A stretch of 64,000 nt of DNA, taken from assembly GCA_963847705.1 (NCBI GenBank), contig CAWKBC010000032.1, forward strand, positions 224,001 through 288,000, in the 5' to 3' direction. Each line of letters begins with the position of its first letter. The stretch's first letter is position 1. Origin of the DNA: an uncultured Pseudomonadota bacterium (GTDB taxonomy: Bacteria; Myxococcota_A; Polyangia; Fen-1088). A program made the translations under genes and the position numbers. This document shows, one piece after another, positions 44,631-64,000 of the stretch. The notes beneath the pieces are model-generated. The model was not told the origin of the DNA, did no database searches, and worked only from the letters and a program-made list of their open reading frames with translations.

Positions 44631-45131
44631 TCAGCCAGCCGCGCGGGTGGGCGCCATCGGGCCCAGCCAGGCCCGGGCGCGCCAGCGCCGGAGCGAGCGG
44701 CGAAGCTCGAACGCGGCGACCACGGCCAGGCGACCGAGAAGCCCCGCCGTCACTTCGAGGTCGACGCGCCGGCCGGCGCGCTCCACGGCGATCACGCGGC
44801 CACGAACCTCGGCGGCGGTCACGGGGCGGTCGATCTCCAGCGCCGCGTCTCCGCACAAGGTCAGGCGGGGAGCACGGGATGCGTCTTTTTGGATGGAGAG
44901 AACTCGATGCGCCACCGACCGCGATCCCGTCTGGCACAAAACCACGTCGGCGACATCGACGTCAGCGGCGGCGACCGGGGCGACGATCAGAACCTCGCTG
45001 TCCTCGATCGTCGGCGTCATGCTGCGCCCTCCGGCGCGGAATCGAACGCCGATCCCTTCAGCGAGCAACCCTTCGACGACGGATGCGAAGGCCCCTCGAT
45101 GCAGAGCGCTGTGGCCGTGACTCGATCTCAC
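44631..45131 (-). CDS. S24/S26 family peptidase (Ser/His, Sec11/SipW-like)
   Basis: GRSMTPTI (Ser), DVVL, VAHRV (His), LCGDA. Confidence 0.8.
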   Translation of the reverse strand: MRSSHGHSALHRGAFASVVEGLLAEGIGVRFRAGGRSMTPTIEDSEVLIVAPVAAADVDVADVVLCQTGSRSVAHRVLSIQKDASRAPRLTLCGDAALEIDRPVTAAEVRGRVIAVERAGRRVDLEVTAGLLGRLAVVAAFELRRSLRRWRARAWLGPMAPTRAAG

Positions 45132-45267
45132 GCCTCAACACATCGGAGTTTCCGTCGAGAAAATGAACGATCGGCGCGCGATTCTCGCTCGTGACCGCGG
45201 CGGAGATCTGACGGACGCGGGTGTCACATTTCAGACACGCCTCGACCAGGAGTGCACGGTTCAGTTG

Positions 45268-45443
45268 GCCGCGCGCTCGGTTTGCCGCGCGCTCGGTTTG
45301 CCGCCCGGCCCGTTTGCCGCGCGCTCGGTTTGCCGCCCGGCTCAGGTTTGCGGCGCGCTCGGTTTGCCGCGCAGCCCAGTTGCCGCGCGCTCGGTTTGCC
45401 GCCCGGCCCAGTTGCGGCGCGCCCAGTCGCTGCGCGCTCAGTT
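45268..45443. repeat. About 11 degenerate ~16-bp tandem units (consensus GCCGCGCGCTCGGTTT)
   Basis: Read directly; the last unit overlaps the kinase stop codon at 45438. Confidence 0.85.
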
Positions 45444-46314
45444 GCTGCGGACGAACGCCGGCGCGGCCGCGTCCGGAACGAAGCCGAGCTCGACCGAGCG
45501 GCAGCGGGCGGCGATGCGCTCCAGGGAGCCGAGCATGTCGTCCAGGCCGGCCGCGTCGTAGAACGGCGGAAAGCAGCAGGCGAAGAGGCGCGCGATCGAT
45601 TCGGTGGCCGCCACCGCCGTCATCTGGTTGCGGGGCGCGTGGCGCAGAAAGCAGATCCGATCGAGCGGGGCGCGCCCCTGATTCGAGATGCGCCCATCCC
45701 CATGCCAGGGTGTGCCGTACATCCAGACGACATCGCCTTCCTGGCGCAGCACGACGCGCTCGTCGCTCAGGATCTTCACGCCCGGCTCGGGGAGCCAAAG
45801 GCGGGCCATCGTCGTCTTGCCTGCGCCGGACTGGCCGGCGAACAGCGTCCCGCGGCCGTCGGCGTCGACCACGCCGCTGCCGTGGATGGCGACGCCGCGC
45901 CCCCGGGCCAGCAGGTGCACCATCACCAGCTCGTCGAGCGGATACTGCAACGGGTAGAGCGGCAGCCGCCCGGCGAAGACCTCCCGTCGCACCGAGACCT
46001 CCCCCTCGGTGAAGTCCGGGCTGAACGACGCCATCTGGTAGGGTCGCGTCCCGAGCGGCGCCGAGGTGAACACGAACTGAAGGCCCAGGCCGCCGCGGTA
46101 GAGGCGCCAGAGCCCCTTGCCCGAATCGAACAGCAGATCGCTTGCGTCGGGCTCGCGCGGGTCGCCCCAGTCGGCGCGAATCCGCACCTCGGGCCGCTCG
46201 GCGTCCGAGACGAACTTGGCGGCGGCGCCCGCGGCGGCGATCGGCAGAATCCTCCGCCCCGGACGAGAGCGCAATCTTGATTCCGGCGATGTCGAGCGCG
46301 AACGCTCCGCTCAT
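45438..46314 (-). CDS. HPr-kinase-related P-loop protein (RiPP-associated kinase) with an apparent 1-nt frameshift near 46249
   Basis: AIHGSGVV, FAGQSGAGKTT, ILSDERVVL, YGTPWHG; ATG 46314 overlaps the precursor stop (ATGA) but is out of frame with the body. Confidence 0.75.
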
Positions 46315-46493
46315 GAGCCGAACGTCATGCAGCCGCCGAGCGAGGTGCAGTCGGACTCCGCTGGTCCCGCCACCCCCATCGTCTTGCAGTTGCCGAGCAC
46401 GGCCTCTTCGGGGCGCAAGGCCACCTGCGACAGCGTCGGCTTCTCGTACGGTTTTCGTCCGGAGCCGGGCTCCGGTGGAGACTCTGGTGTCAT
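46311..46493 (-). CDS. RiPP precursor peptide (60 aa): leader with KPYEKPTL RRE-binding motif, core with three Cys and C-terminal Ser
   Basis: GGAG RBS 6 nt before the ATG; MTPESPPEPGSGRKPYEKPTLSQVALRPEEAVLGNCKTMGVAGPAESDCTSLGGCMTFGS; lies between the rSAM and kinase genes. Confidence 0.85.
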   Translation of the reverse strand: MTPESPPEPGSGRKPYEKPTLSQVALRPEEAVLGNCKTMGVAGPAESDCTSLGGCMTFGS

Positions 46494-46502
46494 CCGATGC
46501 TC

Positions 46503-47786
46503 CTATGTCCCTTCCGCGGCGCCACAGGCACCGCACCCACCGCTCGAACAAGACGACGACGAAGCGGTGCTCAAGACTTTGAGTGAGCTGGCCCGCGCCA
46601 GGGGCCGCAGCGCGCCAGCGGCCGCCTGGCCCGCCTGCACGCTGTCGACCGCGCGCAGGAGGCGTTCGTGGTGGGCGCCGCCCTCGCAGAACGCGCACTC
46701 GCCATGCGCCGGCGGCGTGAAGCCGACGACGCGGGCGCGCAGGTGGGCCACCTCGCAGAAGAACTCCACCGGCGCCTCCGGATCGCCATGCTCCAACTCG
46801 CTGGTGGCCGCGCAGGCGGAGCAGAGCGAACGAATGTGGCAGTCGGTGCACTTGGTCGGGCGGGTGATGGTCTTGTCGCGCACCTTGGCCAGGAAGCCCT
46901 CCCACCCCTCCTTGAAGCTCCCCCGGCGCAGATCGAACTGGTCGCTGTGCGACAGCACGCAGATGCTCATCTTCCCTTCGGGATCGATGGCGAAGGAATT
47001 GATGCCGCCGCCGCACTGGTAGACCTTGTCGCGGGTGCCGACCACCGGGCGCGCCCGGGAGGCCAGCTCGGCCCATCCGGCGCGGCGCACCGGATCGAGG
47101 ACGTCGAGCTCGACCATCTCGGCCGGGGAGAGCCGCACCTCGAGCGGGCTGTGCGAGCAGTCGATGCGGGCGTTGATCATCCCGTCGAACTTGAACTCCA
47201 CCCCCAGCTCCTCGGCGAACTGCTGCATCTGGGGGACCTCGTGGCGGTTGATGCTCACCGCGACGGTCTTGAGCCGCAGCGGCAGGCCGCGCTCGGTGAG
47301 CAGGCGGATGCCGCGCATGCAGCGATCGAACGAGCCCGGCACGCCGGTGAGGCGCTCGTAGGTCTCGCGCGTGCGGCCGTAGAGGGTGATCTCCACGGCG
47401 AACGGGCGCCACTCGGCCAGCATGTCGGCGAGCTCCGCCGTCAGCTGCGTGCCGTTGGTGAACAGCGTCACCAGGAGGCCGCGGCGCTTGGCGTGCTGGT
47501 AGATCTCCACGAAGTCGCGGCGGGCCAGGATCTCCCCGCCGGTGAGCAGCAGCCAGAGGCAGCCGGCGTCGGCCATCTCGTCGATGATCCGGAAGACCTC
47601 GGCGGTCGACAGCTCGCTCGCGCGCGCCGCCGCGTCCCCGACCGGGAGGTTGTTGTAGCAGTGCGCGCAGGCCAGCGGGCAGCGGTGGGTGAGCTCGATG
47701 GTGCCGTTGGTGGGCAGGCGTCCGCCTCGCGCCCGCCGGTAGATCTGCGCGCTGAAGTCGCCGTAGCTCCGGAGCGCGGCGTTCAT
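46503..47786 (-). CDS. Radical SAM/SPASM peptide maturase
   Basis: CPLACAHC (CxxxCxxC), TGGE, TNG; SPASM YQCGGG...GKMSIC and CTDCHIRSLCSAC...FFC; ATGA overlap with the PqqD gene. Confidence 0.93.
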   Translation of the reverse strand: MNAALRSYGDFSAQIYRRARGGRLPTNGTIELTHRCPLACAHCYNNLPVGDAAARASELSTAEVFRIIDEMADAGCLWLLLTGGEILARRDFVEIYQHAKRRGLLVTLFTNGTQLTAELADMLAEWRPFAVEITLYGRTRETYERLTGVPGSFDRCMRGIRLLTERGLPLRLKTVAVSINRHEVPQMQQFAEELGVEFKFDGMINARIDCSHSPLEVRLSPAEMVELDVLDPVRRAGWAELASRARPVVGTRDKVYQCGGGINSFAIDPEGKMSICVLSHSDQFDLRRGSFKEGWEGFLAKVRDKTITRPTKCTDCHIRSLCSACAATSELEHGDPEAPVEFFCEVAHLRARVVGFTPPAHGECAFCEGGAHHERLLRAVDSVQAGQAAAGALRPLARASSLKVLSTASSSSCSSGGCGACGAAEGT

Positions 47787-48100
47787 GGGGAGACCTCGCT
47801 GACGAGACCCTTGGCCAGCAGCAGCGCCACGAACTCCTGGACGTCGGCGGCGGCCTCGGCCTCGCTGACTTCGTACTCGCGCGACAGCGCGGCCGCCAGC
47901 GCCTGCACCGAGCTCTTCCCGTCGATCCATTTCCAGATCGAGGCGCCCACCGCGTTGAGGGTGAAGATCGACTCGAGGTCGCCGACGCCGCCGCGGACAG
48001 GAACGATGATGACGTCGTCGGCGATCGTGCGGCTGACGAAGCCTTCGGCCTTGCGAGGGAAGCGGGCAGACGAGATGCCTTCGGTGCTCAACACGTACAT
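47783..48100 (-). CDS. PqqD family RiPP recognition element (RRE)
   Basis: IFTLNAVGASIWKWIDG..SV..LA..L..EYEV...A..DV.EFV..L...GLV. Confidence 0.92.
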   Translation of the reverse strand: MYVLSTEGISSARFPRKAEGFVSRTIADDVIIVPVRGGVGDLESIFTLNAVGASIWKWIDGKSSVQALAAALSREYEVSEAEAAADVQEFVALLLAKGLVSEVSP

Positions 48101-48104
48101 AGTA

Positions 48105-50552
48105 TCAGCTGTCTGCCCTCGAACCTTGAGCCGCGTCAGCAAGATGGCGACGCTCGAGGCGCCTCCGACGTCGCAGCCCGGCCACCCCGCCGGAGGCCAT
48201 CAGGGCCCAGAGCACGAGCTGGCCCGGCCGCCCCCGCCCCGAAAGCTCGCATCCGCAGCCATCGCCGCTGGGAGGCAGGAGCGAGGCCGCGTCTTGGGAA
48301 CCGTCGCTGCCGCCGTGGCCGCTTGCACCGTCGCCCCGACCGGCGTCGGGCATTGTGGCGACCGACGCATCGGCGACCACCCCGGCGTCCGGCCCGGCGG
48401 CGTCGGTCCCGGCCCCGTCGGGGCCGAGGCCCGCGTCGCCCGGCGCCGGCGGCGGCGTGGGCAGGCCAAAAATTGTCGGATCGGCGAACAGGATCCAGGT
48501 CCGTTGCGCGTCGACGTCGGTGATGGCGTGCTTGGCCGCGATGGCGGCCTCGCCGAGCGAGGTGTGGGTCAAGCGCGCGACGAACGCCTGGTCGAGAACC
48601 CCCTGCTGGTCGAACGAGGTGAGCGTCGAGGAGGCCCAGACGGCGACGGCGCCGCCGGCGGGCGCCTTGGTGAGCGTCTCGGCCAGGCTCTCGGTGTACA
48701 CGTCCTGAAAAAAACCGTTCAGGCAGTTCATGCTGACGTAGATGGAGAGGGGGGCGTTGGTGAGCGCCGCGGCGTCGCTGCCCGAGAAGAGGCCATCCCA
48801 CACCGAGACCGATCCGTGGCCCATGTAGTTGACCAGGAACGGCCCGGCATCGAGCAGCGGAAGCAGGGCCGCCTCCGTCGAGCTCGGCTGGCTGAGAAAA
48901 AAATTGCTGGTCGGCATCGAGCCGGCGACCGACGCCGCGCTCGCCTGACTGTCCTCCTCGAACGAGAGGCCGGTCTCATCGGCGTCCGCGATGAAGAGCC
49001 CGCCCTGCGGCAGGTCGGCGGCGCCGCCGTAGCCCAGGATCTTCCCCACCACCGTCGACGCCTCCGAGGCCGTGCGGACCGAGAGTCGTCCGATGGCGAT
49101 GTCCTCGACGCCGTCGGCGTCCCAGTCGACGAACCAGCCATCGGAGGCGGTCTCCATCTGCTGCGTGTCGACGAGCTTGGTGGGGGCGAAGTCGAAGTCC
49201 CCCTGCCCCAGGAAGTTGCGCGGATCGAAGGAGGCGTCGCCGACCAGCAGCACGAACCGCGGCGCCGGCGTCCAGCTGCCGTGAACCGCCTGCAGAAAAT
49301 CGCGCACCGCGAAGGGCGTCTTGTCGCCGGCGCCGAACTCGTCGTACACGTCCTGCAGGTCGACCAGCTGCACCGACCAGCCCTGCTGCCGCCGCGCCGT
49401 CACCAGCGGCGCCAGCGCGTCGATGAAGAGAGCGTTCGAGAGGATCACCATCTCGCCGGCGCGCGGGTCCGTCCAGCGGGACGGCCGGCTGGCGGTGACC
49501 GACGAGGGCGCCACGACGGCGGCGCCGGTGAAGGCGTACAGCGCCGGCCAGGAGGTCTCCCCCGGTGTGTTCACCGTGACGGTGGTGCTCGACCCGGCGG
49601 TGACCACGCTGGTCACGAGCTCGATCGGGCTGGTCGGATCGGTCACGTCCATCACCCGCACGTCGGACGACGAGAACCCCGCGATGGCGATCGGCGTGGC
49701 GGGCGGCGCGGTCAGGTTGAGCGCGTTCCCGTCGGCGACGAACAGGTGCTGGTAGTCGATCTCCACGCTGGCCACCAGCGACTCGTCGGGAGAATCCCCC
49801 TCCCCGACCAGCAGAACGTCGTTGGCCCCCTCGCGCACGCTGACCGGCGAGAGCGCGCAGGTCTGGGAGTCCTGCCCGGCGAACGCGCAGACGCCGACCG
49901 GCTGGCCGTCGAGCGAGATCGCCACCTGGTGGTCTCCGGCCGTGACCCCCTGCAGGACGACCTGCAGCCCGGCCGGCTGCGCCCCGTCGAGGTGAGTGAC
50001 CGACACCGACTCGGTCACGCCGGCGGGGCCGACGACGTCGCCGAAGAAGTTGCTGGCTTCGCCGTTCTTCAGCGCCGCGAAGTAGTTGGTTCGCTGGCGC
50101 AGCACCGCGGCACCTGGAAAATCCTGGGGCGCCGCTCCGCTGGCCGGATACGCCGAGAGGGGGACGCGTTTGCCGGCCGTCCCCGGTCCGACGACCAGCC
50201 AGTAGGTGCGCGCCCCCGTCCAGAGCGTATCGCGCCCCTGGCCGTAGAACTCGATCGCCTCGCCGCTGTCGAACACCGCGTCGCCGTTGCCGGTGATCGA
50301 CAGCGCCTGTTCGACGCCGTCGGCGAAGAGCTGGAGCTGCGCCGGGTCGACCCCTGGAGCGAGCCCGGCCGCGACCAGGGCCGGCTGCGAGACGTGTTGC
50401 CACCCCGTCGAGGTCACCACCAGCTTGACGGCGGGCATCGCGGCCAGCTCCAGCTGGCTCGGCGCGCCCGGGCTGGCCGCAAATGCCGCGGGCGTCGCTG
50501 GCAGGCCGAACGCGCCGAACGCGCCGGCCACGACGAGAGACCAGCGCGCCAT
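48105..50552 (-). CDS. C25 family (gingipain/PorU-like) cysteine peptidase with signal peptide and MYXO-CTERM
   Basis: VKLVVTSTGW, IEFYGQG, DVYDEFG, VLLVGDASFDP, IAIGRLSV, catalytic NYMGHGS and SMNCLNG, WILFADP; tail GCGCELSG + TM + RRRRR. Confidence 0.9.
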   Translation of the reverse strand: MARWSLVVAGAFGAFGLPATPAAFAASPGAPSQLELAAMPAVKLVVTSTGWQHVSQPALVAAGLAPGVDPAQLQLFADGVEQALSITGNGDAVFDSGEAIEFYGQGRDTLWTGARTYWLVVGPGTAGKRVPLSAYPASGAAPQDFPGAAVLRQRTNYFAALKNGEASNFFGDVVGPAGVTESVSVTHLDGAQPAGLQVVLQGVTAGDHQVAISLDGQPVGVCAFAGQDSQTCALSPVSVREGANDVLLVGEGDSPDESLVASVEIDYQHLFVADGNALNLTAPPATPIAIAGFSSSDVRVMDVTDPTSPIELVTSVVTAGSSTTVTVNTPGETSWPALYAFTGAAVVAPSSVTASRPSRWTDPRAGEMVILSNALFIDALAPLVTARRQQGWSVQLVDLQDVYDEFGAGDKTPFAVRDFLQAVHGSWTPAPRFVLLVGDASFDPRNFLGQGDFDFAPTKLVDTQQMETASDGWFVDWDADGVEDIAIGRLSVRTASEASTVVGKILGYGGAADLPQGGLFIADADETGLSFEEDSQASAASVAGSMPTSNFFLSQPSSTEAALLPLLDAGPFLVNYMGHGSVSVWDGLFSGSDAAALTNAPLSIYVSMNCLNGFFQDVYTESLAETLTKAPAGGAVAVWASSTLTSFDQQGVLDQAFVARLTHTSLGEAAIAAKHAITDVDAQRTWILFADPTIFGLPTPPPAPGDAGLGPDGAGTDAAGPDAGVVADASVATMPDAGRGDGASGHGGSDGSQDAASLLPPSGDGCGCELSGRGRPGQLVLWALMASGGVAGLRRRRRLERRHLADAAQGSRADS

Positions 50553-50649: not shown

Positions 50650-53600
50650 ATGACTCGGAGGAGAGCTCTGTTCGGCGTCTCGGGGGGAGTCCTGGCGCTC
50701 GCCATCGCCTGGCCGGCCGCCGTCCAGGCCGCCGCCTGCGCCACCACCGCCTGCGGTTCCGCCACCAGCGTGACCTACAACGGCGCGGCCTTGACCTTTG
50801 CCGGCGCTTCGACGAACGGGACGGTGCGCAGCGAGCTCTGGTACCTGGTCGCGCCGACGAGCGGCGTCCACAACGTGGTGGTCACCGCGCCCAACGCCGA
50901 CGCGGTCACCGCCACCTCGATGTCGTTCACCGGCGTCAACCAGACCACCCCCCTCGGCACCACGGTCTCGGCGATCGGCACCGGCACGACCACGTCGGTC
51001 TCCACCACCAGCGCGGTCGGCGAGCCGCTGTTCGACGTCGTCGGCGCCGTCGGAACCACCCCACCGACCGTGGCCGGCGCGACCCAGACCGTTCGCCAGA
51101 CCAACACCACCGCGACCGGCCTCGACCAGGTGGTCCTCGGCTCCAGCACCGCGCCGGGCGCGGGCGCCACGTCGATCAGCATGTCCTGGACCATCCCCAG
51201 CGCCGACTGGGCCCAGATCGCGGTCCCCATCCAGGCCTCCACCGCACTGACCGCCGTCGCGGTGAGCGCTCTGACCGCGACGTTGCAGCCCGACGGCGTG
51301 CTGGTCCAGTGGAGCGATGGCTATGAGCCGTCGTCGCTGGGATTCTACGTCTACCGCAGCGACGGTACCGGAGGCCGCGTCCGGCTGAACGCCTCGGTCA
51401 TCGCCGGCGGCGCGCTCGGCACGGGAGCGTCGTCGTTCTCCTGGAAGGACGCCTCGGCGGGCTGGGACGGCGCGGTGTCGTACTGGGTCGAAGACGTCGG
51501 CCTCGACGGCTCGATGAGCTGGTACGGTCCGGTCACCCCACGACCCGCCGGCGCCATCGACGCAACGGGCGGCGCGGCCGCGAGCTCGTCCGGCGGCGCC
51601 GCCAGCAGCTGGTCCGGCGCGGGCGGCCAGGCGCCGGCAGAATCGGCCGGGGCGGGCGGGTGCACGGTCGCCGCGCGCGATCCGCGCAGCACGCTGCTGC
51701 AGCTGGTGCTGGCGCTCGGCCTGGTCGCCGGCGTGCGGCGGCGGAAGCGGCTCGCCGCGCTGGTCGTCCTCTACGCCCTGGCGGTCGCCGCCAGCGGGCT
51801 GCTTTCGCCCCGGACCGCCGCAGGCGCGGGCGGCGTCGCCGTCGACGCGACCGCCACCGGGTCGGGCGCCAGCGGATTGACCTTCTCGCACACGATGGGC
51901 GCCGGCGCGAACGGGCTCCTGATCGTGGGGGTGGTCGTCCCGATCACCTGCGACGACACCACGACCGACGGGGCCAACTGCGGGGCCTGCGGCACGACCT
52001 GCGCGCAGGATGTCGGAGCTTCGCTCGGCACGGGTCTGCTCGGCCTGTGGCGCTTCGACGAGGGGAGCGGCACCACCTCGGCCGACTCGTCCGGCAACGG
52101 CAACACGGCCACCCTCTTCAACAGCCCGAGCTGGACCACCGGTTACTCCGGCGACGCCGTCGAGGGGAACGGCACCAGCAGCTACGTCGCGGCCAACATC
52201 GGGACCTGGTTCGGGGCGAACAACACCCTGTCGGTCTCCGCCTGGACCTACGTCAACGCCAGCTCCAGCGGCCCGGTGGTCGGGATCGCCGGGACCAACG
52301 GCTGGAACATGCCATTCCTCAGCGTCAACGGCTCGACCGTCTACGGTTGGCTGTGGGGCGTGCCCGGAACCGACCCGGCCAGCAGCCCCCTCGCGGCGAC
52401 GGTCACCCTCGACGCCTGGCACTTCCTGGCCATCACCTACGATCCGAACGGTGGTGGCGCGGGGATCGGCCAGGAGATCTTCTACGTCGACGGCATGGTC
52501 TCCAGCTCGGCCACCGGGACCTACCAGCCGTCTGGAACGAGCGACGTCTTCACCACGCAGATCGCCGGCGCAAAGCCCAACGGAGGCGCCATGGACAGCG
52601 TCCTGCTCGGCAAGGTCGACGAGGTGCGCGCCTACAACCGGACTCTGAGCGCCGCAGACATCACCGCGCTCTACGGCGGGCGGCTCACCTGCGCGGCCAG
52701 CACCTGCGCGGCCTGCTCCGGGGGCCAGACCGCTTGCAGCGGCAGCTGTACCGACACGTCGACCGACATCGACAACTGCGGCGGCTGCGGACACGCCTGC
52801 AACATCGCCGGCGGCGAAACCTGCGTGGGGGGAACTTGCACCTGCACCACCGGCACCGACTGCAGTGGCGTCTGCTCCACCACCTCCAACGATCCCAACA
52901 ACTGCGGTGGCTGTGGCATCGCTTGCGGAATGCCGACCAGCGCCGCCATCGACAGCGGGCTCATCGGGCACTGGAACCTCGATGAGGGGTCCGGCACGAC
53001 CTCGGCCGATTCGTCGGGGAACGGCAACACGGCGACACTCTCCGGCGCGACCTGGACCACAGGCTACTCCGGCGACGCGGTCGCGGGTGACGGCAGCTCT
53101 ACCTACGTGAGCGCCAACCTGGGGAGCTATTTCGGCACCAACGCCGCCCTCACCGCCAGCGCCTGGGTCTACGCCACCGCGACCACCAACGGTCCTGTCT
53201 TCGGCGTCACCTCCATCCCGGCGGGCGGCGGCTGGAACATGCCCTTCCTCAGCATCGCCGGCTCAACCGCTTACGGATGGTTGTGGGGGGTCCCGGGGAT
53301 CGACGGCGGCTCGAGCCCGCTGGCCGCCACCGTCAGCCTCGACGCCTGGCACTTCCTGGCCATCACTTACACGCCGTCGGGAGGGTCAGGGACGGAGAGG
53401 TTCTACGTCGACGGCGCGCTGGCCGGCACCGCGACCGGCGCCTACCAGCCCTCGGGCCAGGTCGACACCTGGTCCACCACCATCCCCGGCGCCAGGCCAA
53501 GCGCCGTCACCAACAGCTTCCTCAACGGCAAGGTTGACGAGGTGCGCGCCTACAGCCGCGCGCTCAGCGCCGCCGAGATCTCGATCCTCTACAACGCCCG

Positions 53601-54657
53601 CCAGACCTGTTCGTCGTCGATCTGCGGCGGCTGCACCGGCGGCGAGTCGCTCTGTGGCGGCGATTGCACCGACAAGACCATCGACGCCAGCAACTGCGGC
53701 GCCTGCGGCACCAGCTGCAACATCTCCGGCGGTGAGAGCTGCATCTCCAGCAGCTGCGGCTGCGCCAGCGGCACCGACTGCAGCACCGTCTGCGTCGACA
53801 CCACCTCCGATCAGAACAACTGCGGCGGCTGCGGCGCCCCCTGCGGCGCTGTCACCTGCGCCTCCTGCGGCAGCGGGATGGCGGGCCTGTGGCACCTCGA
53901 CGAGGGCTCCGGGTCGACGTCGGCCGATTCATCCGGCAACAACCACACCGCCACGCTCAACAGCAGCCCCGGCTGGGTGACGGGCGAGGCGGGCAACGGG
54001 CTGGCGTTCAACGGCACCAGCTACATGACGGCCACGCTGGGAAGCTGGTTCGGCAACAACAACCCCCTCTCCGCCAGCGCCTGGGTCTTCGCCACCTCCA
54101 CCACGAACGGGCCGATCTTCGGCGTCACCGACACCCTGCCGGGGACGAACTGGAACATGCCTTTCCTGAGCATTGCCGGGTCGACCGTCTACGGCTGGCT
54201 CTGGTCGATGGCCAACAACAATCCCCTGTCGGCGACGGTCTCGCTGAACGCCTGGCACCTCCTCACGATCACCTACGATCCGAACGGAGGCGCCGCCGGC
54301 ACCGGCCAGGAGATCTTCTACGTCGACGGCGCGGTGTCGCAGTCCTCGGACATCACCTACTGGCCCTCGGGCAACAGCGACTTCCTCACCACGCAGATCC
54401 AAAACGCCAAGCCGAGCGGCGTGAACAACATTCTGACCGGCACCATCGACGAGCTCCGCGCCTATACCCGCGTCCTCTCGGCGGGTGAGATCGCGCTGCT
54501 CTACAACGCGCGTCAGACCTGCGTGGGCTCCGTCTGCACCGGCTGTCCGACGGGGACCACCAGCTGCGGCGGCGGCGTCTGCCAGAACACCGCCTGCGGT
54601 GCCTGCGGAAGTCCCTGCTCGGGCACCCAGCAGTGCGTCTCCGGCACCTGCATGTAG
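50650..54657 (+). CDS. Large secreted polyprotein-like adhesin: signal peptide, beta domain, C25-associated TAV domain, internal MYXO-CTERM, second signal peptide, three LamG domains with Cys-rich repeats
   Basis: Signal ending AVQA; TAVAVSALTA...GFYVYR...YWVEDVGLDG..WYGPV; GGCTVAA-TM-RRRKR-TM; three W.(F/L)DEGSG.TSADSSGN...(V/I)DE(V/L)RAY.R.LS LamG units. Confidence 0.85.
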   Translation: MTRRRALFGVSGGVLALAIAWPAAVQAAACATTACGSATSVTYNGAALTFAGASTNGTVRSELWYLVAPTSGVHNVVVTAPNADAVTATSMSFTGVNQTTPLGTTVSAIGTGTTTSVSTTSAVGEPLFDVVGAVGTTPPTVAGATQTVRQTNTTATGLDQVVLGSSTAPGAGATSISMSWTIPSADWAQIAVPIQASTALTAVAVSALTATLQPDGVLVQWSDGYEPSSLGFYVYRSDGTGGRVRLNASVIAGGALGTGASSFSWKDASAGWDGAVSYWVEDVGLDGSMSWYGPVTPRPAGAIDATGGAAASSSGGAASSWSGAGGQAPAESAGAGGCTVAARDPRSTLLQLVLALGLVAGVRRRKRLAALVVLYALAVAASGLLSPRTAAGAGGVAVDATATGSGASGLTFSHTMGAGANGLLIVGVVVPITCDDTTTDGANCGACGTTCAQDVGASLGTGLLGLWRFDEGSGTTSADSSGNGNTATLFNSPSWTTGYSGDAVEGNGTSSYVAANIGTWFGANNTLSVSAWTYVNASSSGPVVGIAGTNGWNMPFLSVNGSTVYGWLWGVPGTDPASSPLAATVTLDAWHFLAITYDPNGGGAGIGQEIFYVDGMVSSSATGTYQPSGTSDVFTTQIAGAKPNGGAMDSVLLGKVDEVRAYNRTLSAADITALYGGRLTCAASTCAACSGGQTACSGSCTDTSTDIDNCGGCGHACNIAGGETCVGGTCTCTTGTDCSGVCSTTSNDPNNCGGCGIACGMPTSAAIDSGLIGHWNLDEGSGTTSADSSGNGNTATLSGATWTTGYSGDAVAGDGSSTYVSANLGSYFGTNAALTASAWVYATATTNGPVFGVTSIPAGGGWNMPFLSIAGSTAYGWLWGVPGIDGGSSPLAATVSLDAWHFLAITYTPSGGSGTERFYVDGALAGTATGAYQPSGQVDTWSTTIPGARPSAVTNSFLNGKVDEVRAYSRALSAAEISILYNARQTCSSSICGGCTGGESLCGGDCTDKTIDASNCGACGTSCNISGGESCISSSCGCASGTDCSTVCVDTTSDQNNCGGCGAPCGAVTCASCGSGMAGLWHLDEGSGSTSADSSGNNHTATLNSSPGWVTGEAGNGLAFNGTSYMTATLGSWFGNNNPLSASAWVFATSTTNGPIFGVTDTLPGTNWNMPFLSIAGSTVYGWLWSMANNNPLSATVSLNAWHLLTITYDPNGGAAGTGQEIFYVDGAVSQSSDITYWPSGNSDFLTTQIQNAKPSGVNNILTGTIDELRAYTRVLSAGEIALLYNARQTCVGSVCTGCPTGTTSCGGGVCQNTACGACGSPCSGTQQCVSGTCM

Positions 54658-57503: not shown

Positions 57504-58064
57504 ATGAGATTACCTGCCGCTTTCGTTGCGTCGCTCGTCCTGGCCGTCACAGCTTGTGGCGGTTCATCGGGAGGTGGGAGCGCGACCGATGGTGGCAAGG
57601 ATCGCGCGGGCAACACGGGCGGTAGCTCCGGCGGCGGCCAACCAGGCCAGGGAGGCATTGCCGGCGCCGCGGGAAACTCCGGTCGCGGAGGAGCCGCGGG
57701 CGCCGCCGGCGGCAACGCGGGGCTGGGCGGAGCGGCTGGCGCAAGCGCCGGTGGTGCGGCCGGATCCGCCAACCTCGACGGTGGCGCGGCCGGCGCGGGC
57801 GGAGGCGCCGGGCAAGGTGGCGCCGGGCGCGACGGCGGCGCCGACGCGCGGGCAGACGGCGGCAACTGCCCCAGCCAGAATCCCGACCCCTGCCTCTGCG
57901 GACGCCCCGACGCGAACCCGGTCTCGGCGTCCGACTGCACGCGCGAGAAGGCCTGTCGCGCGGCCGGAGGCATCTGGGAGCCATACGTCGTCTACCTGGC
58001 CGAGGGCGGAGTGTACGGACCGCGCTGCCAGTCCGTCGACGGCGCCGCCTTCGACGCCCCCTGA
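57504..58064 (+). CDS. Small lipoprotein with Gly-rich linker and a Cys-rich C-domain
   Basis: VTAC lipobox; TAGTCT-6nt-ATG. Confidence 0.7.
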   Translation: MRLPAAFVASLVLAVTACGGSSGGGSATDGGKDRAGNTGGSSGGGQPGQGGIAGAAGNSGRGGAAGAAGGNAGLGGAAGASAGGAAGSANLDGGAAGAGGGAGQGGAGRDGGADARADGGNCPSQNPDPCLCGRPDANPVSASDCTREKACRAAGGIWEPYVVYLAEGGVYGPRCQSVDGAAFDAP

Positions 58065-58117
58065 GCCCGCGCTCGCCACTGCCAAACCGGACCTGACCGA
58101 GAGCCTCTCGATTTTAA

Positions 58118-58439
58118 CGAGCGAGAGCTCCGCGTGGCTTGGCCACGCGGAGCGGAGGGGGACCGGGCAGAGCGAGCACAGCGTGACGGACGGGGATGCG
58201 AGCGCAGCGTGGCGGACGGGAGAGCGAGCGCAGCGTGGCGGACGCGAGAGCGAGCGCAGCGTGGCGGACGCGAGAGCGAGCGCAGCGTGGCTCTGCCACG
58301 CGGAGCGAGGGGGGACCGGGGGGTGCGAGCGGCAGCGAGCCGCCCCCCGTAAAATCAAAGGGGTGCGAGCGGCAGCGAGCCGCCCCCCGTAAAATCAAAG
58401 GGGTGCGAGCGGCAGCGAGCCACCCCCCGTAAAATCAAA
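58118..58439. repeat. Composite intergenic REP-like element: 11-bp hairpin, 26-bp unit x3.5, 40-bp unit x3
   Basis: CTCCGCGTGGC-ttg-GCCACGCGGAG near 58128; GCGAGCGCAGCGTGGCGGACGCGAGA at 58198-58291; GGGGTGCGAGCGGCAGCGAGCCGCCCCCCGTAAAATCAAA at 58320-58439. Confidence 0.85.
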
Positions 58440-59052
58440 GCACGAAGTTGACCAGCAGCTTCTCCTCGCCGCGCAGAAGCTCGGTCGGGAACCGCCACTT
58501 CTTGAGATGACTGCTGTAACAGTGGCGGACGTCTCGGGCCGCACCGTCGGCGCCCAGGATCTGCACCAGCTCGACGGCGCCGTTGGCGCCAATCTCGAAG
58601 GCGGCGCCGAGCTCGAGCGGTGGGCCGCGATCGGGATCGTCGAGGCACTCGCGCAGCTCGGGTGCCCGCTCGGCGGCGAAGGCGCGCAACGCCTTCGTGC
58701 GCTCCCCCTCTTCGAGCGGCTTCCCGGCGGGCAGCGGCGTGAGCGCCGCAAGGGCGGCGCGCCCCACCTTGCCATGCCGCGCGACGTGCGACGCGCCGAT
58801 GGCGCCGCCGCCGCCGCTCGCCGCCGGCGGCGCGACGCAGGCGACCGTGGGGGGACAGACGGCGGGCGGCGTGGTGACCGCGGGAACCGCGCGCCTCAGA
58901 GCCAGCAGGTAGCCGGCGCCGCCGCCGGCTGCGAGCAGCAGGAGGGCCAGCGCCGCCAGCGCCGGCCCGCGCGGTCGACCGCCCCCGCGCCGGCCCGGCG
59001 CGCCGCCGCCGGAATGGCGCAACCAGGCGGGGAGATCGGCGGAGGGTGCCAT
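58435..59052 (-). CDS. Single-TM protein with a C-terminal AgmX/PglI (TonB-C-like) domain
   Basis: TM ALAALALLLLAAGGGAGYLL; ELRECL...AFEIGANGAVELV...VRHC....KKWRFP. Confidence 0.6.
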   Translation of the reverse strand: MAPSADLPAWLRHSGGGAPGRRGGGRPRGPALAALALLLLAAGGGAGYLLALRRAVPAVTTPPAVCPPTVACVAPPAASGGGGAIGASHVARHGKVGRAALAALTPLPAGKPLEEGERTKALRAFAAERAPELRECLDDPDRGPPLELGAAFEIGANGAVELVQILGADGAARDVRHCYSSHLKKWRFPTELLRGEEKLLVNFVL

Positions 59053-59072: not shown

Positions 59073-60152
59073 TCAGTGGCTCGTCGCCAGCGTGGCGACG
59101 CTGCTGCCGAGCTGCTGGATGGCGGCGGCCGGCATCGAACCGATGAGCTGGCAGAAATCGGCGCTCTGCCCGGTGCCGGGATTGGCGGCGTTGAGCGCCG
59201 CCATGAGTGGCGTGAAGTAGAGGTTCGGCGACGGGCCGATGTCGTCGAGCACGTTGAGCGGGAACCCCGTCACCGCTTTGCACTTGGCCTCGAAGTCGGT
59301 CTGGCTCTGCCCTTCGGCGGTGGCGATCGCCACCTGCACCACCTGCGACGGCGAGATGCTGGTGCCGCTCGAGAACGAGAGCCAGGTGACGCCGCCGGAG
59401 GCGTCGGTGTCGAGGAAGATGTCCGTGGGCGAGCGGCCGTTGACGTTGCAAGCGTCGCTCGGCAGCGCGCAGCGCCGGGCGACCGGCTGCAGGTAGACGA
59501 CGATGAACAGATCGCGGGGGCTGTCGAAGAAGGCGCTGCGATCGATCCCACCCTGCCCCGCCGGCAGCGCGGCCGAGTCGAGGCCCTGCCCGAAGCCGAT
59601 CAGGTTTTTCGCCTCGCAGGACTGGCCGTCGCCGTCGAAGTTCCCCGATCCGGCCAGGATCTGCAGCGCCAGCGGCAGGTCGGCGTCGTCGATGTTCGCC
59701 AGCGTCGGCGCGATGATCGGCAGCAGGCTCTGGTAGTTGCTGAGCCCCGCGTCTGCCCCCAGGAGGCCCAGCAGCGCCAGCGCAGGGGGGAGCGACTGGC
59801 TGGAGCTCGAGCCCTGGCGGCCGAGCAGCAGCCGCGGCCCGAACTCGTCACCGTAGGTCGAGATGAGCCCCATGTTCGCGATCGAGAGCCCCCGCGAGCC
59901 CAGGTAGTTCATGAAGCCGGTCATGATCCCGGCGTACTGGTTGGAGAGGTTCACCGAGGTTCGCGCGAGGTTGGCGACGAAGAGGATGCTCGCCGTCAAG
60001 GGAGGTGGCTGCGGCAGCGCGTCGGGGCGGACGGGAAACGGGACCGGGATGTAGATCTTCTTGGTCATCCCGCCGTCGGGGCTGGCGGGCGTGATGATCG
60101 TGCAACCGGCCCCCGCCAGCACCAGAATCAAGAGGAGCGATCGGGTCTTCAT
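59073..60152 (-). CDS. Lipoprotein with a degenerate vWA-like fold
   Basis: GAGC lipobox; SILFVANL...F..YL....MGLIST resembles the vWA beta1-alpha1-beta2 region without a MIDAS; ATGA overlap with the upstream gene. Confidence 0.6.
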   Translation of the reverse strand: MKTRSLLLILVLAGAGCTIITPASPDGGMTKKIYIPVPFPVRPDALPQPPPLTASILFVANLARTSVNLSNQYAGIMTGFMNYLGSRGLSIANMGLISTYGDEFGPRLLLGRQGSSSSQSLPPALALLGLLGADAGLSNYQSLLPIIAPTLANIDDADLPLALQILAGSGNFDGDGQSCEAKNLIGFGQGLDSAALPAGQGGIDRSAFFDSPRDLFIVVYLQPVARRCALPSDACNVNGRSPTDIFLDTDASGGVTWLSFSSGTSISPSQVVQVAIATAEGQSQTDFEAKCKAVTGFPLNVLDDIGPSPNLYFTPLMAALNAANPGTGQSADFCQLIGSMPAAAIQQLGSSVATLATSH

Positions 60153-61957
60153 AGTGCCACCATCTTTCCCTTGTCCTTCGCCGTCGCGGAGCCACTGCCG
60201 GACTTTCCACTCTCGGCGTGCGACGTTTGGGGCGCCTGCAGGCCACGGGCGCGCAGCGTCTGTCGCAGCGCCGCGTAGAGCGCGCGGCGGGCCTCGGCCG
60301 TCTCGCGCGGCGTCGGCGTGACGACCAGCGAGAGATCCTCCTCCAGCGCCGCGGCCACCGTCCGTGGCAGCGTGGAGAGCGTGCGCGAGGCGACCGTCGC
60401 CGAAGCGGTGCGCAGAAAGCGCGCCAGGATCTCCGTCGGGACCCCCACCACCGTGGCCCCGAGCACCTCCTCGGAGACCAGCTCGAACGACTGCTCGGTG
60501 ATGAGCGCGGCCTCGATCGCGCGCGCCTTGACCGGATCGGCGCGCCGCATGGCGTCCAGGATCTCGGCCTGCTCGTCCATCGGCCGCTCCTCGACCAGCT
60601 CCACCGCCAGATCGATGTCGCCGGTCTGGCCCGAGTCGAGGTGGGCCTGTTCGATGGCCCGCGCCCGCAACGTGGCCGCCACGTCGAGCAGGTGCTCCTT
60701 CGAGAGCGACTTGGGAGAGGCGATGGCCGCCGCCAGCGCCGCGCGCTCGCCGGTGGAGCGCGACTCGAGATAGGTCGAACGCAGATGGGCGGGCGCGTAG
60801 CGCAGCGCCGCCGCCCGCACGCTGGGCGGCTCGGGGTCGAGCACCGCGGCCAGCCGCGCCGGCGACACGCCGAGCAGAAACGCGAACTCCTGCTCGACCG
60901 GATCGTCGGCGCCGACCATCCGGTGTTTGAGGATGCGCCGGTGCAGCTGGTCGACGATCTCGCGCGTGTCCGAGCGGGGCCGTCCGTCGACGAGCAGCGC
61001 AGCGGCCTCGCGCAACGCCGAGGCGCAGGCCGGATCGCCGCGGAGATCCTCCACCACGCCGGGGCCGATGAGCTCGACGGCGACGGCGACCTTTTCGATC
61101 TGGTTCTCGCGCAGGAGCTCCCCCATCACGCGCCGGGCCAGCACCCGATCCTCGCGCAGGGCGCGCCGCACCTCGGGGAGATGATCGACCGCCGCCGGCA
61201 GCGCGCCGGCACCGGAGGCCTCGCCGCGCCGATCGGGGGCGGTCCCCTGCTGGATGTTGCGCCGGGCGCGCCGGTCGGCGAGCGCGCTCAGCAGCGCAAA
61301 GCCGAGCGCCCCGATGAGCAGGCCCAGGACGCCGAGCGCGATGGCCACCACCCAGGGGATTCCATGCGTCCCGTTGTCGACGGCCGGCGCGGGCGGCGGC
61401 GGGGGGATCGGGTACGGCTGCGGCGCCGGCTGCTCCCGCTCACGCTGCGGCGCCGGCTGGGGCGGGGGCGGATAGGCGTAGGGAGACATCTCACGCTGTT
61501 GCGGCTGAGGCCGCGGCGTCGGAAAGGCGATCACGCTCTCGGTGATCTCGACGGGAACGTCGAGCATGTCGAGCTTGCTCTTGAGGAGGTTCTTGAGGTC
61601 CTTGCGAAACTGGGCGGGGAGCTTGGCGTCGAGCGTCACCGCCACCTCGACCCGCTCCGCCACGAACTCGGTCCCGGGCGTCAGCTCCTCGAAGCCGGGC
61701 GCCGCGCCGGCCGGCAGCGCCGTGGGGCGATTGACCCGGACGTCGACGTACTTGAGCTCGGCCTGGCCGGGCGCCATCTCCTCCAGCACCGGGGCGATGC
61801 GCCGCGTGACCTCATCGCGCACGTTCGCTTCCAGCAGCTGCGCGTCGTTGCCGAACGGTGGTCGCCGCTCCGCGCGCGCGGAGCCCGCCGCCAACAGGGT
61901 CGCCAGCGCCACCGCGGCCGCCCCCATCCCGGTTCTCATATGAATGATGCGCTTCAT
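60149..61957 (-). CDS. FliF-like (RBM3 + TM + C-tail)-FliG fusion protein (putative rotor)
   Basis: Signal peptide; RRIAPVLEE...ERVEVAVTLD...LKNLL; TM; REDRVLARRVM; EKVAVAVELIG (FliG-N); FAFL...EPPSV (FliG-M); DPVKARAIE...LPRTVAAALEEDL (FliG-C). Confidence 0.7.
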   Translation of the reverse strand: MKRIIHMRTGMGAAAVALATLLAAGSARAERRPPFGNDAQLLEANVRDEVTRRIAPVLEEMAPGQAELKYVDVRVNRPTALPAGAAPGFEELTPGTEFVAERVEVAVTLDAKLPAQFRKDLKNLLKSKLDMLDVPVEITESVIAFPTPRPQPQQREMSPYAYPPPPQPAPQREREQPAPQPYPIPPPPPAPAVDNGTHGIPWVVAIALGVLGLLIGALGFALLSALADRRARRNIQQGTAPDRRGEASGAGALPAAVDHLPEVRRALREDRVLARRVMGELLRENQIEKVAVAVELIGPGVVEDLRGDPACASALREAAALLVDGRPRSDTREIVDQLHRRILKHRMVGADDPVEQEFAFLLGVSPARLAAVLDPEPPSVRAAALRYAPAHLRSTYLESRSTGERAALAAAIASPKSLSKEHLLDVAATLRARAIEQAHLDSGQTGDIDLAVELVEERPMDEQAEILDAMRRADPVKARAIEAALITEQSFELVSEEVLGATVVGVPTEILARFLRTASATVASRTLSTLPRTVAAALEEDLSLVVTPTPRETAEARRALYAALRQTLRARGLQAPQTSHAESGKSGSGSATAKDKGKMVAL

Positions 61958-61971
61958 GAAACCACTCCCAG

Positions 61972-62685
61972 CTAGTGGACCCTAATCACGACCCTGCGAT
62001 TTTCGCTGCGGGCGCGCGTCTGCGCGGAGGCATCGCCCTGCACGGGCGTGGCCGGCCGCGTGTCGGCGTATCCCTGGGCGGAGAGTCGCTGCGGACTGAC
62101 CCCCGCCGCGGTGAAGGACTTGAGCACGTTGATCGCCCGCGCCGAGGAGAGCTCCCAGTTCGAGTCGAACCGGCCCGTGTGGATCGGGACATCGTCGGTG
62201 TGCCCCTCGATGGCGATCTGGTAGCGGTTGTCGATGGTGGGGAGCAGCTTCCCCACCCGATCGATCGCCGCGCGCCCGGTCGGCGTGATGTCGGCCTGGC
62301 CGCTGTCGAACAGCAGCGCATTCTTCAGCTCCATGCGCAGCCCCTCGTCGTCGACGACGGTCTTCACCTGCTGGGTCAGCCCCTGCGCCGCGATCACCGC
62401 GTCGATCTTCTCCTTCAGCACGTCGAGCGAGGGCGGCGGTGCCTGATGCGAGATCGCCGCGGAGACCATCTCGAACTTGCGCAGGTTCACCTTCGACATG
62501 GCCAGCGCCAGGATCAGAAACGCCAGCAACAGGCTGACCACGTCGACGTAGGGGATGAGCCAGGAGGTGTCGTCCTCCTCGCCGTAGGCCAGCAGATCGC
62601 TGGCATCGGGGCCCCGGCTGGGGCTGGCCTTGGCGGAGCGCTTGGCGCCGCCGCCGGGCCCGCCGCCGGTCTCGAGGCCGATCAC
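61972..62685 (-). CDS. motB: MotB family stator protein (TM with conserved Asp, plug, OmpA-like PG-binding domain)
   Basis: WLIPYVD..SLLLAF; LLFDSG; IEGHTD; NWELSSARA; GYADTRP; NRRV; GTGA overlap with the motA stop. Confidence 0.9.
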   Translation of the reverse strand: MIGLETGGGPGGGAKRSAKASPSRGPDASDLLAYGEEDDTSWLIPYVDVVSLLLAFLILALAMSKVNLRKFEMVSAAISHQAPPPSLDVLKEKIDAVIAAQGLTQQVKTVVDDEGLRMELKNALLFDSGQADITPTGRAAIDRVGKLLPTIDNRYQIAIEGHTDDVPIHTGRFDSNWELSSARAINVLKSFTAAGVSPQRLSAQGYADTRPATPVQGDASAQTRARSENRRVVIRVH

Positions 62686-63443
62686 GCGGCCTCCGCGGCG
62701 GAGGGGGCACCGCCGCCCGCGCCGGCCAAGAGGCGCAGGTCGTAGAGCGACCGCCCCTCGGCGATGCTGGTGAGCCCGCGCTCGAGCAGGCGCGCCGACA
62801 CCGAGAGGTTGCGTCCGTAGTTCTCGATCCGCTTGGCGAACGGCGACCAGATCGCATACGCCAGGATGAGGCCGTAGAACGTCGCCAGCTGCGCCACCGC
62901 CATCGCCGGGCCCAGCTGCTCGAAGTTCTTCAGGTTGATGAGCATGTTCACGAGGCCAACGATGGTCCCCATCAGGCCGACGGCCGGCGTGGTGCGGGCC
63001 AGAAAGCGGAACACCTCCTCCGCCTCTTTGACCTGCGACAGGCGCGCGTACGACAGCGTCAGCACGGTCTCGCGCGCATCGGCGCCGCCGCCCGGCTGGA
63101 GCAACAACGGACCGACCTCGCGCAGCAGCGGATCCTCGGCCTCGGCGAGCACCTTGGAGGCCTCGACCGTTCGCCCCTGCTTGAGCTCGCGGCCGAACCG
63201 ATAGAGATCGGCGATCATGCGCGACTCGGCCCGCCGCGCGTTGTAGCGCAGCGCCTGGGCCAGGGTCACCACGCCGCGCCAGATCTCGCGCACGTCGTGC
63301 CCCACCAGCAGGATCGACGGCGGCGCCCCCAGCAAGAGGATGAGCGCGGCCGGGTGAAAGAAGCCGGTGAACCCGTTCGGCATGTGGCTGCGCGTGGAGA
63401 CCAGCGTCGCCCACAATCCCGCCAGCCCGATGATGATGTGCAT
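62682..63443 (-). CDS. motA: MotA family stator protein
   Basis: PAALILLLG; DPLL; PAVGLMGTIVGLVNML..L; LGPAMAVA..ATFYG; PFAKRI. Confidence 0.88.
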   Translation of the reverse strand: MHIIIGLAGLWATLVSTRSHMPNGFTGFFHPAALILLLGAPPSILLVGHDVREIWRGVVTLAQALRYNARRAESRMIADLYRFGRELKQGRTVEASKVLAEAEDPLLREVGPLLLQPGGGADARETVLTLSYARLSQVKEAEEVFRFLARTTPAVGLMGTIVGLVNMLINLKNFEQLGPAMAVAQLATFYGLILAYAIWSPFAKRIENYGRNLSVSARLLERGLTSIAEGRSLYDLRLLAGAGGGAPSAAEAA

Positions 63444-63452
63444 CTTCCCTTT

Positions 63453-64000
63453 CTACTTTCCGAGGCGCTGAAGCGCCTCCAGCACCGCGAGGTTGAAGGG
63501 GTTCAGCCGCAGGGCTTCTTGCCAGGCTTCCCGCGCCAGGTTCTTGTTGCCGAGGCGCTCGTAAAGGGACCCCTTCATCGAGAGGATGTGCTCGTCTTCG
63601 GGGTACTGCCTCTCGAGATCGACCAGCTCCACCAGCCCCAGCTCGTAATGGCGCGTGCGATAGAGATCCTTCACCCGCGCCAGCGTCAGCAGATAGCTCG
63701 CCTTCGCCGCAGGCGGCGTCCCGGCCGCGCCCGGGACCTTGTCGCCCGGCCGCGCGGTCCTCTGTGCCAGACTCCGGTTGGCGTCGCGGTCGGTCGGATG
63801 GGCCGCCCCCTCGTCGACCGCGTCGTCCGGGCCGGGAGCATCGCTCTTGGCGCGCTCGGCGGCCGCCATGTTGTCGGCCATGATCTCGCGATCGGCGGCG
63901 GTCGCCGTGGCCATGTCGATGGACATGGGCGCCGCCGGCTTCCCGCTGAGTGGAACCTTGACCTCGTAGGCGGTCGCGATCTCCGGGAGCTGAATCTCCC
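63453..64000 (-). CDS. TPR-containing protein; 5' end lies outside the window
   Basis: Frame open to the window edge; LSMKGSLYERLG..NLAREAWQEALRLNP. Confidence 0.75.
   Translation of the reverse strand, partial: EIQLPEIATAYEVKVPLSGKPAAPMSIDMATATAADREIMADNMAAAERAKSDAPGPDDAVDEGAAHPTDRDANRSLAQRTARPGDKVPGAAGTPPAAKASYLLTLARVKDLYRTRHYELGLVELVDLERQYPEDEHILSMKGSLYERLGNKNLAREAWQEALRLNPFNLAVLEALQRLGK

Follow-up and report, generated by a model that had tools for sequence, protein, structure and literature searches.

P0001 is an open reading frame (ORF) in the window analysed here, a stretch of 64,000 nucleotides from the assembly of an uncultured Pseudomonadota bacterium (GCA_963847705.1, contig CAWKBC010000032.1, positions 224,001 to 288,000). 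The frame is free of stops over 1335 codons, and its GC content at third codon positions is 0.87–0.96 along the entire length. The encoded protein begins with a signal peptide and a two-Cys segment (CysA), continues with the later part of a beta domain (A2), a second beta domain (TAV) and a flexible linker, and carries a MYXO-CTERM-like sorting tag in its interior. The tag runs into a second signal peptide, followed by the first strands of the beta domain (A1) and a Cys-rich stalk with three LamG domains (Table 1). Two domains, the beta domain (domain A) and the first eight-Cys repeat of the stalk, are each divided between the two sides of this junction, in a crossed arrangement.

Table 1. Features of P0001 and of the genes beside it. 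Positions are those of the window; aa, amino acid residues; identities are pairwise means over 46 orthologues.
Feature	Position	Strand	Remarks
P0001, whole ORF	50650..54657	+	1335 aa; orthologues 1242–1393 aa
Signal peptide 1, aa 1–27	50650..50730	+	Sec/signal peptidase I type by sequence; identity 33%
CysA, C1 and C2 (Cys30, Cys35) of first eight-Cys repeat	50731..50757	+	Cys30 in 45/46, Cys35 in 46/46; identity 81%
A2, later strands of beta-sandwich 1 and whole beta-sandwich 2 of domain A, aa 37–197	50758..51240	+	identity 66%
TAV, unnamed beta domain of about 100 aa	51241..51540	+	precedes peptidase C25 in intact relatives
Flexible linker rich in Gly/Ala/Ser, aa 298–335	51541..51654	+	predicted local distance difference test score (pLDDT) <50; identity 28%
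Internal MYXO-CTERM-like tag: GGC, helix 1 (aa 348–362), basic patch (aa 363–367)	51655..51750	+	Cys338 codon at 51661-51663; helix 1 identity 46%
Signal peptide 2, aa 363–392	51736..51825	+	basic patch in common with tag; predicted cut after Gly392; hydrophobic part identity 33%
A1, first three beta-strands of domain A, aa 393–432	51826..51945	+	identity 79%
CysB, C3–C6 of first repeat (Cys434, 444, 447, 451)	51946..52005	+	
LamG domain 1	52021..52686	+	inserted between C6 and C7 of repeat 1
C7–C8 of repeat 1, repeat 2, C1–C6 of repeat 3	52687..52944	+	
LamG domain 2	52945..53604	+	
C7–C8 of repeat 3, repeat 4, first part of repeat 5	53605..53871	+	
LamG domain 3	53872..54516	+	
End of repeat 5, repeat 6, stop	54517..54657	+	without C-terminal anchor
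Peptidase C25 (PorU-like), divergent	48105..50552	-	signal peptide and terminal MYXO-CTERM; His and Cys dyad motifs present
Conserved cassette PqqD, radical SAM/SPASM, HprK-like, S26-like	44631..48142	-	
PqqD	47783..48142	-	
Radical SAM/SPASM	46503..47780	-	
HprK-like P-loop protein	45438..46274	-	
S26-like peptidase	44631..45131	-	

The original prediction described an in-frame fusion in which one basic patch serves both as the end of the sorting tag and as the start of a new signal peptide. This description is borne out: the residues quoted for 51652-51828 (aa 335-393) lie in a single stop-free frame, and the shared patch reads RRRKR. Conservation was scored over 46 orthologous sequences, three N-terminally cut ones having been replaced by P0199–P0201. 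The second signal is of the cleavable type, with small residues at positions -1 and -3 in all 46; Gly (24) or Ala (22) occupies -1, Ala (37), Val (5) or Ser (4) occupies -3, and Ala (39), Thr (6) or Ser (1) follows at +1, while Pro stands at -6 in 31. The first Val of A1 follows the basic patch by 25–31 residues. In the tag, Cys338 is kept in 45/46 orthologues and the Gly before it in every one, the helix reaches a best 11-residue Kyte-Doolittle mean of 2.7, and the basic cluster holds at least four Arg or Lys in all 44 sequences scored. Signal peptide 1 is not of the lipobox type, the residue before Cys30 being Val, Thr or Gln in 14/46 orthologues. The genome also encodes a myxosortase-family protein (G000:C14:16618-17508), which scores 143.3 bits on NF040914 (cut-off 100) and falls below the MrtX, MrtC and MrtP cut-offs.

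A stop codon or misassembly at the junction, either of which would have undone the fusion, is contradicted by other genomes. In 13 of 89 genomes of the family (10 from the same genus and 3 from a second genus), a match spans the entire region from tag to A1 with no stop codon; two further weak matches belong to a relative without the permutation and to a Cys protein that is unrelated. No match occurs in 16 genomes from other families of the class. A protein search returned 49 matches at E 1e-20, and about 40 of them extend over the N-terminal half with ~47–92% identity; the domain order is identical in all of these that were read. Relatives carry the label Polyangia or Myxococcales in their sources. 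One genome (G021) has frameshifts within LamG 1, with the junction intact. A search of sequencing runs listed eight DNA runs, each with at most 0.10 of the words, and no RNA run.

The proposal that A1 and A2 are the two halves of one domain in permuted order, contiguous and oppositely arranged in homologues, agrees with a survey of 176 A2 matches in 151 proteins. A1 ends just upstream of A2 in 108 of these matches, typically by 2–9 residues, and lies 387–419 residues downstream in six, which are the P0001 family. Three more negative offsets are tandem copies, and the remaining 59 matches have either no A1 call at the threshold used or one from another copy. A profile built from 43 intact homologues matches P0001 in two non-overlapping pieces of reversed order, with profile positions 70–310 on aa 37–295 (E 1e-61) and positions 16–64 on aa 381–431 (E 9e-11), and the same reversal is found in all 46 family proteins tested. 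The profile's own signal region aligns onto signal peptide 2, which is therefore the native signal of domain A. In a quick tree of 24 of the 46 permuted and 50 of the 160 intact rows, all permuted proteins fall to one side of a branch whose support in the Shimodaira–Hasegawa-like approximate likelihood ratio test (SH-aLRT) is 98.

Structural models place the break at a specific position in the fold. The AlphaFold model of an intact homologue (P0089; 43 rows; pLDDT 94.3; predicted template modelling score, pTM, 0.89) consists of two beta-sandwiches, at about residues 16–120 and 121–220; the three strands that open sandwich 1 are those of A1, and the permutation breaks the chain at a hairpin turn. 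In the model of P0001 aa 29–771 (pLDDT 76.1), A1 forms the same three strands (pLDDT 81–86) between a low-confidence two-helix hairpin and LamG 1. Fold searches with this single-chain model are dominated by LamG matches and carry no information on A1 docking. Across 181 intact domains, 17 of the top 60 covarying pairs join A1 to several A2 strands, in the pattern of strand ladders. Against solved structures, domain A gives a best Z of 7.9 (root-mean-square deviation, rmsd, 3.2; 95 residues aligned). No solved relative was found by sequence or Foldseek and no Pfam model. The ESM Atlas matches obtained in the analysis are all below 0.9. Strong matches of domain A are confined to predicted phage proteins, many of which bear the name minor tail protein (E to 1e-19). 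Intact domain A also occurs in stand-alone proteins of 210–240 residues without a signal peptide (P0041, P0065, P0080, P0114 and similar), and their fold resembles phage minor tail proteins.

A second split, which the original prediction had missed, can be read in the Cys pattern of the stalk. The stalk consists of eight-Cys repeats, with each LamG domain placed between C6 and C7 of repeats 1, 3 and 5, and with one extra Cys pair in repeat 5. Repeat 1 has six Cys after the junction and reaches eight only with Cys30 and Cys35, which directly follow signal peptide 1. By comparison with 181 intact repeats, CysA matches the C1–C2 half and CysB the C3–C6 half, and no Cys occurs within 40 residues before CysB in 45/45 sequences. 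By its Cys pattern, then, the first repeat is split as well, with C1–C2 ahead of the junction and C3–C8 behind it. Because repeat 1 and domain A are both split, the order resolves into SP1-CysA / A2-TAV-tag-SP2-A1 / CysB-LamG stalk (SP, signal peptide). In this order, the permuted SP2-A1-A2-TAV-tag unit sits in the C2–C3 turn of a Cys-repeat protein. This turn tolerates changes in length, since it has three residues in the P0001 repeats and about eight in the downstream Cys protein. Across a hairpin of the intact fold, A1 lies next to A2, so the new ends of the permuted unit would lie close together and suit such a turn.

These features point to a precursor that is likely cut into two exported chains, which would re-form a lipid-anchored, branched and closed 1:1 adhesin complex. 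Signal peptide 1 would start Sec export and be removed after about Ala27. Helix 1 would then stop transfer, leaving RRRKR in the cytoplasm, and signal peptide 2 would restart export and be cut off by signal peptidase I after Gly392. By analogy with the published TraA model, Cys338 would be lipidated and myxosortase would cut behind it. The predicted products are chain 1 (aa 28–338) and chain 2 (aa 393–1335). The three A1 strands of chain 2 would complete beta-sandwich 1 of chain 1, as homology suggests, and Cys30 and Cys35 of chain 1 would supply what the first eight-Cys repeat of chain 2 lacks, interchain disulfides being probable. The folded 1:1 complex would move to the surface, where the Cys-rich stalk and its three lectin-like LamG domains would project from a loop of the base domain. 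Encoding both chains in a single ORF would set their stoichiometry and keep the two halves at one translocon during folding.

The re-association by strand complementation foreseen in the original prediction is likely. Its two further suggestions fare differently. The adhesin was expected to be released, but chain 2 contributes three core strands to the base domain and has one Cys repeat in common with chain 1, and so it is predicted to be clamped to the base. Polymerisation is not supported because, after cutting, chain 1 has only an acceptor (A2) and chain 2 only a donor (A1), and neither mature chain combines the two.

The LamG assignment is firm in sequence and in fold. PF13385 scores 163 bits on P0001, above the Pfam cut-off, in three stretches, and the modelled fold is closest to a sugar-bound domain (5hon_B; Z 20.4, rmsd 2.8, 191 residues aligned), so adhesion to glycans is a likely role. 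The Cys-rich part scores 96.1 on NF041328 (MXAN_6577-like; cut-off 100) and 21 on PF04885 (STIG1; cut-off 24.1); P0001 orthologues carry PF04885.

A more specific design is proposed tentatively, at slightly less than an even chance. An anchored unit would have been permuted, closed by a disposable membrane hairpin and placed in a loop of another protein, and two routine membrane cuts would convert the precursor into two chains that cross at a four-way junction formed by the beta-sandwich and the disulfide repeat. If this is right, a C-terminal lipid anchor displays a stalk by the stalk's N-terminal end, and the payload is exchangeable, as in P0004, which has the same base with other domains. 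P0004 is the sole such case among 120 payload relatives, among the matches listed.

Several observations weigh against the two-chain complex. Cleavage, lipidation, localisation and binding are all predictions from sequence and models. The internal tag scores 18 bits on TIGR03901 directly and 14.9 bits in a genome scan, under the cut-off of 20, and of nine validly cut orthologous tags (L045 excluded) none reaches the cut-off and four have no match at all. Helix 1 is short and contains a conserved Gln/Arg, and the orthologue P0166 has lost the tag Cys. No two-gene form occurs among the 14 of 37 shorter matches that were read. The docking of A1 is judged from pLDDT in a model of pTM 0.53. The coupling scores by which permuted A1/A2 pairs appear to keep part of the intact signal (8.9 for their own pairs, 12.0 for held-out intact pairs and 5.0–5.9 for mismatched pairs) come from one clade, with an effective sequence number (Meff) of 168 and overlapping spreads (standard deviation 3–6). 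For the stalk, no solved relative of the Cys repeat was found, and Cys co-loss across 256 repeats is uninformative on disulfide pairing. As to the tag model, the terminal tag of the neighbouring C25 protein scores 19 and 20.2 on TIGR03901, and the cut-off is therefore strict for this lineage. The internal tag also gives 20.9 bits on JDVT-CTERM (cut-off 27).

The same tag scores, the single loss of Cys and the two-gene form not seen would also fit a hairpin that stays uncut or is cut at one site. P0001 would then be a single permuted chain facing the periplasm, with a two-helix anchor in the inner membrane linking its former ends. The geometry is possible, given 38 flexible residues before helix 1, and helix 1 is better conserved (46%) than either signal (33%). 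However, the small residues at -1 and -3 are invariant in kind and Cys338 is nearly so, helix 2 drifts in sequence as a disposable signal would, and LamG and phage-tail-like domains presumably suit surface adhesion more than the periplasm. An uncut hairpin is the main alternative, though an unlikely one.

Further action of the adjacent C25 peptidase on the complex is improbable; it would cut at the A2/TAV boundary or re-ligate the chains and attach or polymerise the adhesin, in a manner resembling the protein-level permutation of concanavalin A or type V pilus maturation. A C25 gene with intact His and Cys motifs adjoins P0001 in every locus that reaches far enough, A, TAV and C25 form one protein in the unpermuted family member L065, and Mfa1 fimbriae are matured by gingipains, according to the accessible text of PMC5954841. 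The same C25 cassette, however, also stands beside proteins without a split domain (L030–L036, L065), and no cut chain holds donor and acceptor together.

That both cuts occur and the chains then part, leaving the base on the cell and freeing the LamG protein with the half-domains as relics, is very improbable. Chain binding is, to be sure, a prediction, but no other part of the N-terminal half is conserved as strongly as A1 (79%) and CysA (81%), which would not be expected of relics, and A2 without A1 lacks three core strands. Slightly less weight still falls to an internal translation start directly ahead of the basic patch, which would yield chain 2 with no cut. A GTG does precede RRRKR in the window and would give a textbook signal peptide. 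A start codon occupies that position in only 3 of 12 loci read, however, while other in-frame GTG or ATG codons vary in position; a ribosome-binding-like motif occurs in one of the 12, 48 nucleotides away, and an internal start would leave the absence of a stop behind the tag in every orthologue without explanation.

Misassembly or chance loss of a stop in this genome can be dismissed, since the same open junction recurs in 12 other genomes and about 40 clusters at ~47–92% identity, even though a probable chance fusion of similar kind lies on contig C8, where most relatives have two genes. In an own-genome control, 3 of 52 tag matches have the Cys motif with an in-frame second signal downstream: P0001, a polyprotein on contig C47 and the pair on C8. 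Chance fusions therefore occur, but that of P0001 is fixed. The C8 case (L067; G000:C8:103150-106287, minus strand) joins two tandem lipoprotein paralogues through a tag and a lipoprotein-type signal; another genome (G094:C324) has an open frame of 1174 residues there.

The original prediction suggested that P0001 could have arisen by tandem duplication, fusion and trimming. This route is possible, but it needs a new signal peptide exactly before C1, and its intermediate was not found. Insertion of the permuted unit into a Cys-repeat gene is a possible alternative that gives the same order in one step. Neither a parent form nor an intermediate appears in the A1/A2 match survey, the shorter matches read or the 89 family genomes. 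An uninserted Cys/LamG parent gene was likewise not found with this query in the 89 genomes, all E 1e-25 matches falling in the same 13; matches on the separate contigs G016:C219 and G059:C118 are taken as continuations. Ongoing DNA rearrangement was considered and dropped because the repeat list has no direct repeat, and no recombinase was seen, at the two crossover points.

The nearest published case is MXAN_5598 of Myxococcus xanthus, which has a MYXO-CTERM in mid-ORF thought to result from gene fusion (Guo, Haft and Wall, mBio 2025, PMC11980579). The accessible text of that paper proposes that its N-terminal part is processed and surface-anchored. P0001 resembles it in the internal motif. 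MXAN_5598, however, joins two complete units (an adhesin, and a beta-barrel with OmpA), whereas both products of P0001 are incomplete, with two domains split and crossed. The same text does not mention a second signal peptide or a split domain for MXAN_5598, and P0001 has both. Insofar as the accessible descriptions extend, P0001 shares with MYXO-CTERM/myxosortase sorting of the TraA and MrtX type the Cys motif, helix and Arg-rich patch, as well as an N-terminal signal peptide, a disordered linker and a myxosortase-family gene in the genome (PMC11980579; bioRxiv 10.1101/2023.06.07.544157). Unlike a canonical MYXO-CTERM, the tag of P0001 is not C-terminal, being followed by 968 residues, and it scores under the TIGR03901 cut-off. 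P0001 works like an internal-signal polyprotein and is neither a canonical MYXO-CTERM member nor a polymerising pilin.

Polyproteins cut at internal signal peptides include FbcH of Bradyrhizobium (cytochrome b-c1) and flavivirus prM-E, in which a stop-transfer helix is followed by a signal that signal peptidase cuts. Their products remain in one complex and are whole domains. P0001 differs from these in its permuted domain and in the predicted lipidation of its sorting tag. For completion of a fold by the strands of another chain, parallels exist among pilins, including PilA-N and PilA-C of Geobacter, which are encoded by two genes. PilA-N/PilA-C is described as a heterodimeric pilin in the accessible text of PMC11046646, and type V pili, in which a C25 protease takes part, as matured by gingipains in that of PMC5954841. 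In contrast to the separate PilA proteins, P0001 is one gene with a predicted closed 1:1 pair. Type V subunits carry donor and acceptor together and polymerise, whereas the P0001 chains would carry one each.

Within the same family of genomes, L065 and L032 share domain A, TAV, C25 and the cassette with P0001. They read SP-A(intact)-TAV-C25-tag, followed by PqqD and radical SAM genes. In contrast to P0001, their domain A is intact, C25 is in the same chain, the tag is at the true C-terminus and the Cys/LamG stalk is absent. No named family was found for this architecture. A literature search found no bacterial polyprotein of the P0001 design, although further internal tags may be listed in subscription papers and supplements (e.g., Table S1 of PMC11980579). 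An internal MYXO-CTERM is already in print for MXAN_5598; what appears to be new is the double crossed split.

If the proposed processing is true, P0001 is a natural bacterial polyprotein whose products are obligate halves rather than independent proteins, and housekeeping membrane proteases excise the linker of its permutation. P0001 would then offer a testbed for the action of myxosortase and signal peptidase on internal signals, for the movement of a strand-complemented heterodimer by the type II system, and for the fixation of circular permutations. A compact split-protein display module could also be drawn from it, with the 39-residue A1 and a four-Cys segment as docking tag.

In 12 other genomes, every contig long enough to include the C25 gene has it next to the P0001 gene, and conservation in this lineage extends to the PqqD, radical SAM, HprK-like and S26-like genes next to C25. 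These genes of the 44631-50552 region of the window accompany C25-TAV surface proteins. A literature search found no paper combining three cassette terms. In P0196, an S24/S26-like domain, domain A and C25 are in one chain. TAV has no Pfam or NCBIfam match, and a Fn3-like fold is a weak lead. It recurs before C25 or before a terminal tag, and P0055 consists of signal, TAV and tag alone; at a guess, TAV might be a recognition module of PorU-like C25.

A second conserved polyprotein (L030:2286-7925; G000:C47:94285-99924) has the order signal-C25-MYXO-CTERM-basic patch-second signal-DUF2341/LamG passenger-TAV-tag. Its junction is matched over nearly the whole length without a stop in 8/89 genomes. 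Its order can be read as passenger-TAV-C25-tag proteins in permuted form, and the PqqD/radical SAM cassette adjoins it in relatives.

Downstream of P0001, 54698-57379 encodes a lipoprotein with a Gly-rich linker, 47-residue Cys repeats and one LamG, which is adjacent only in G001, G017 and G021 among the loci read. The intergenic region at 57900-58500 has a strong A skew (0.35) and apparently repeated sequence, with repeated peptides in opposite-strand frames. The minus strand of 60149-63999 carries what we take to be MotA/MotB-like and FliG-like genes with a TPR-like protein.

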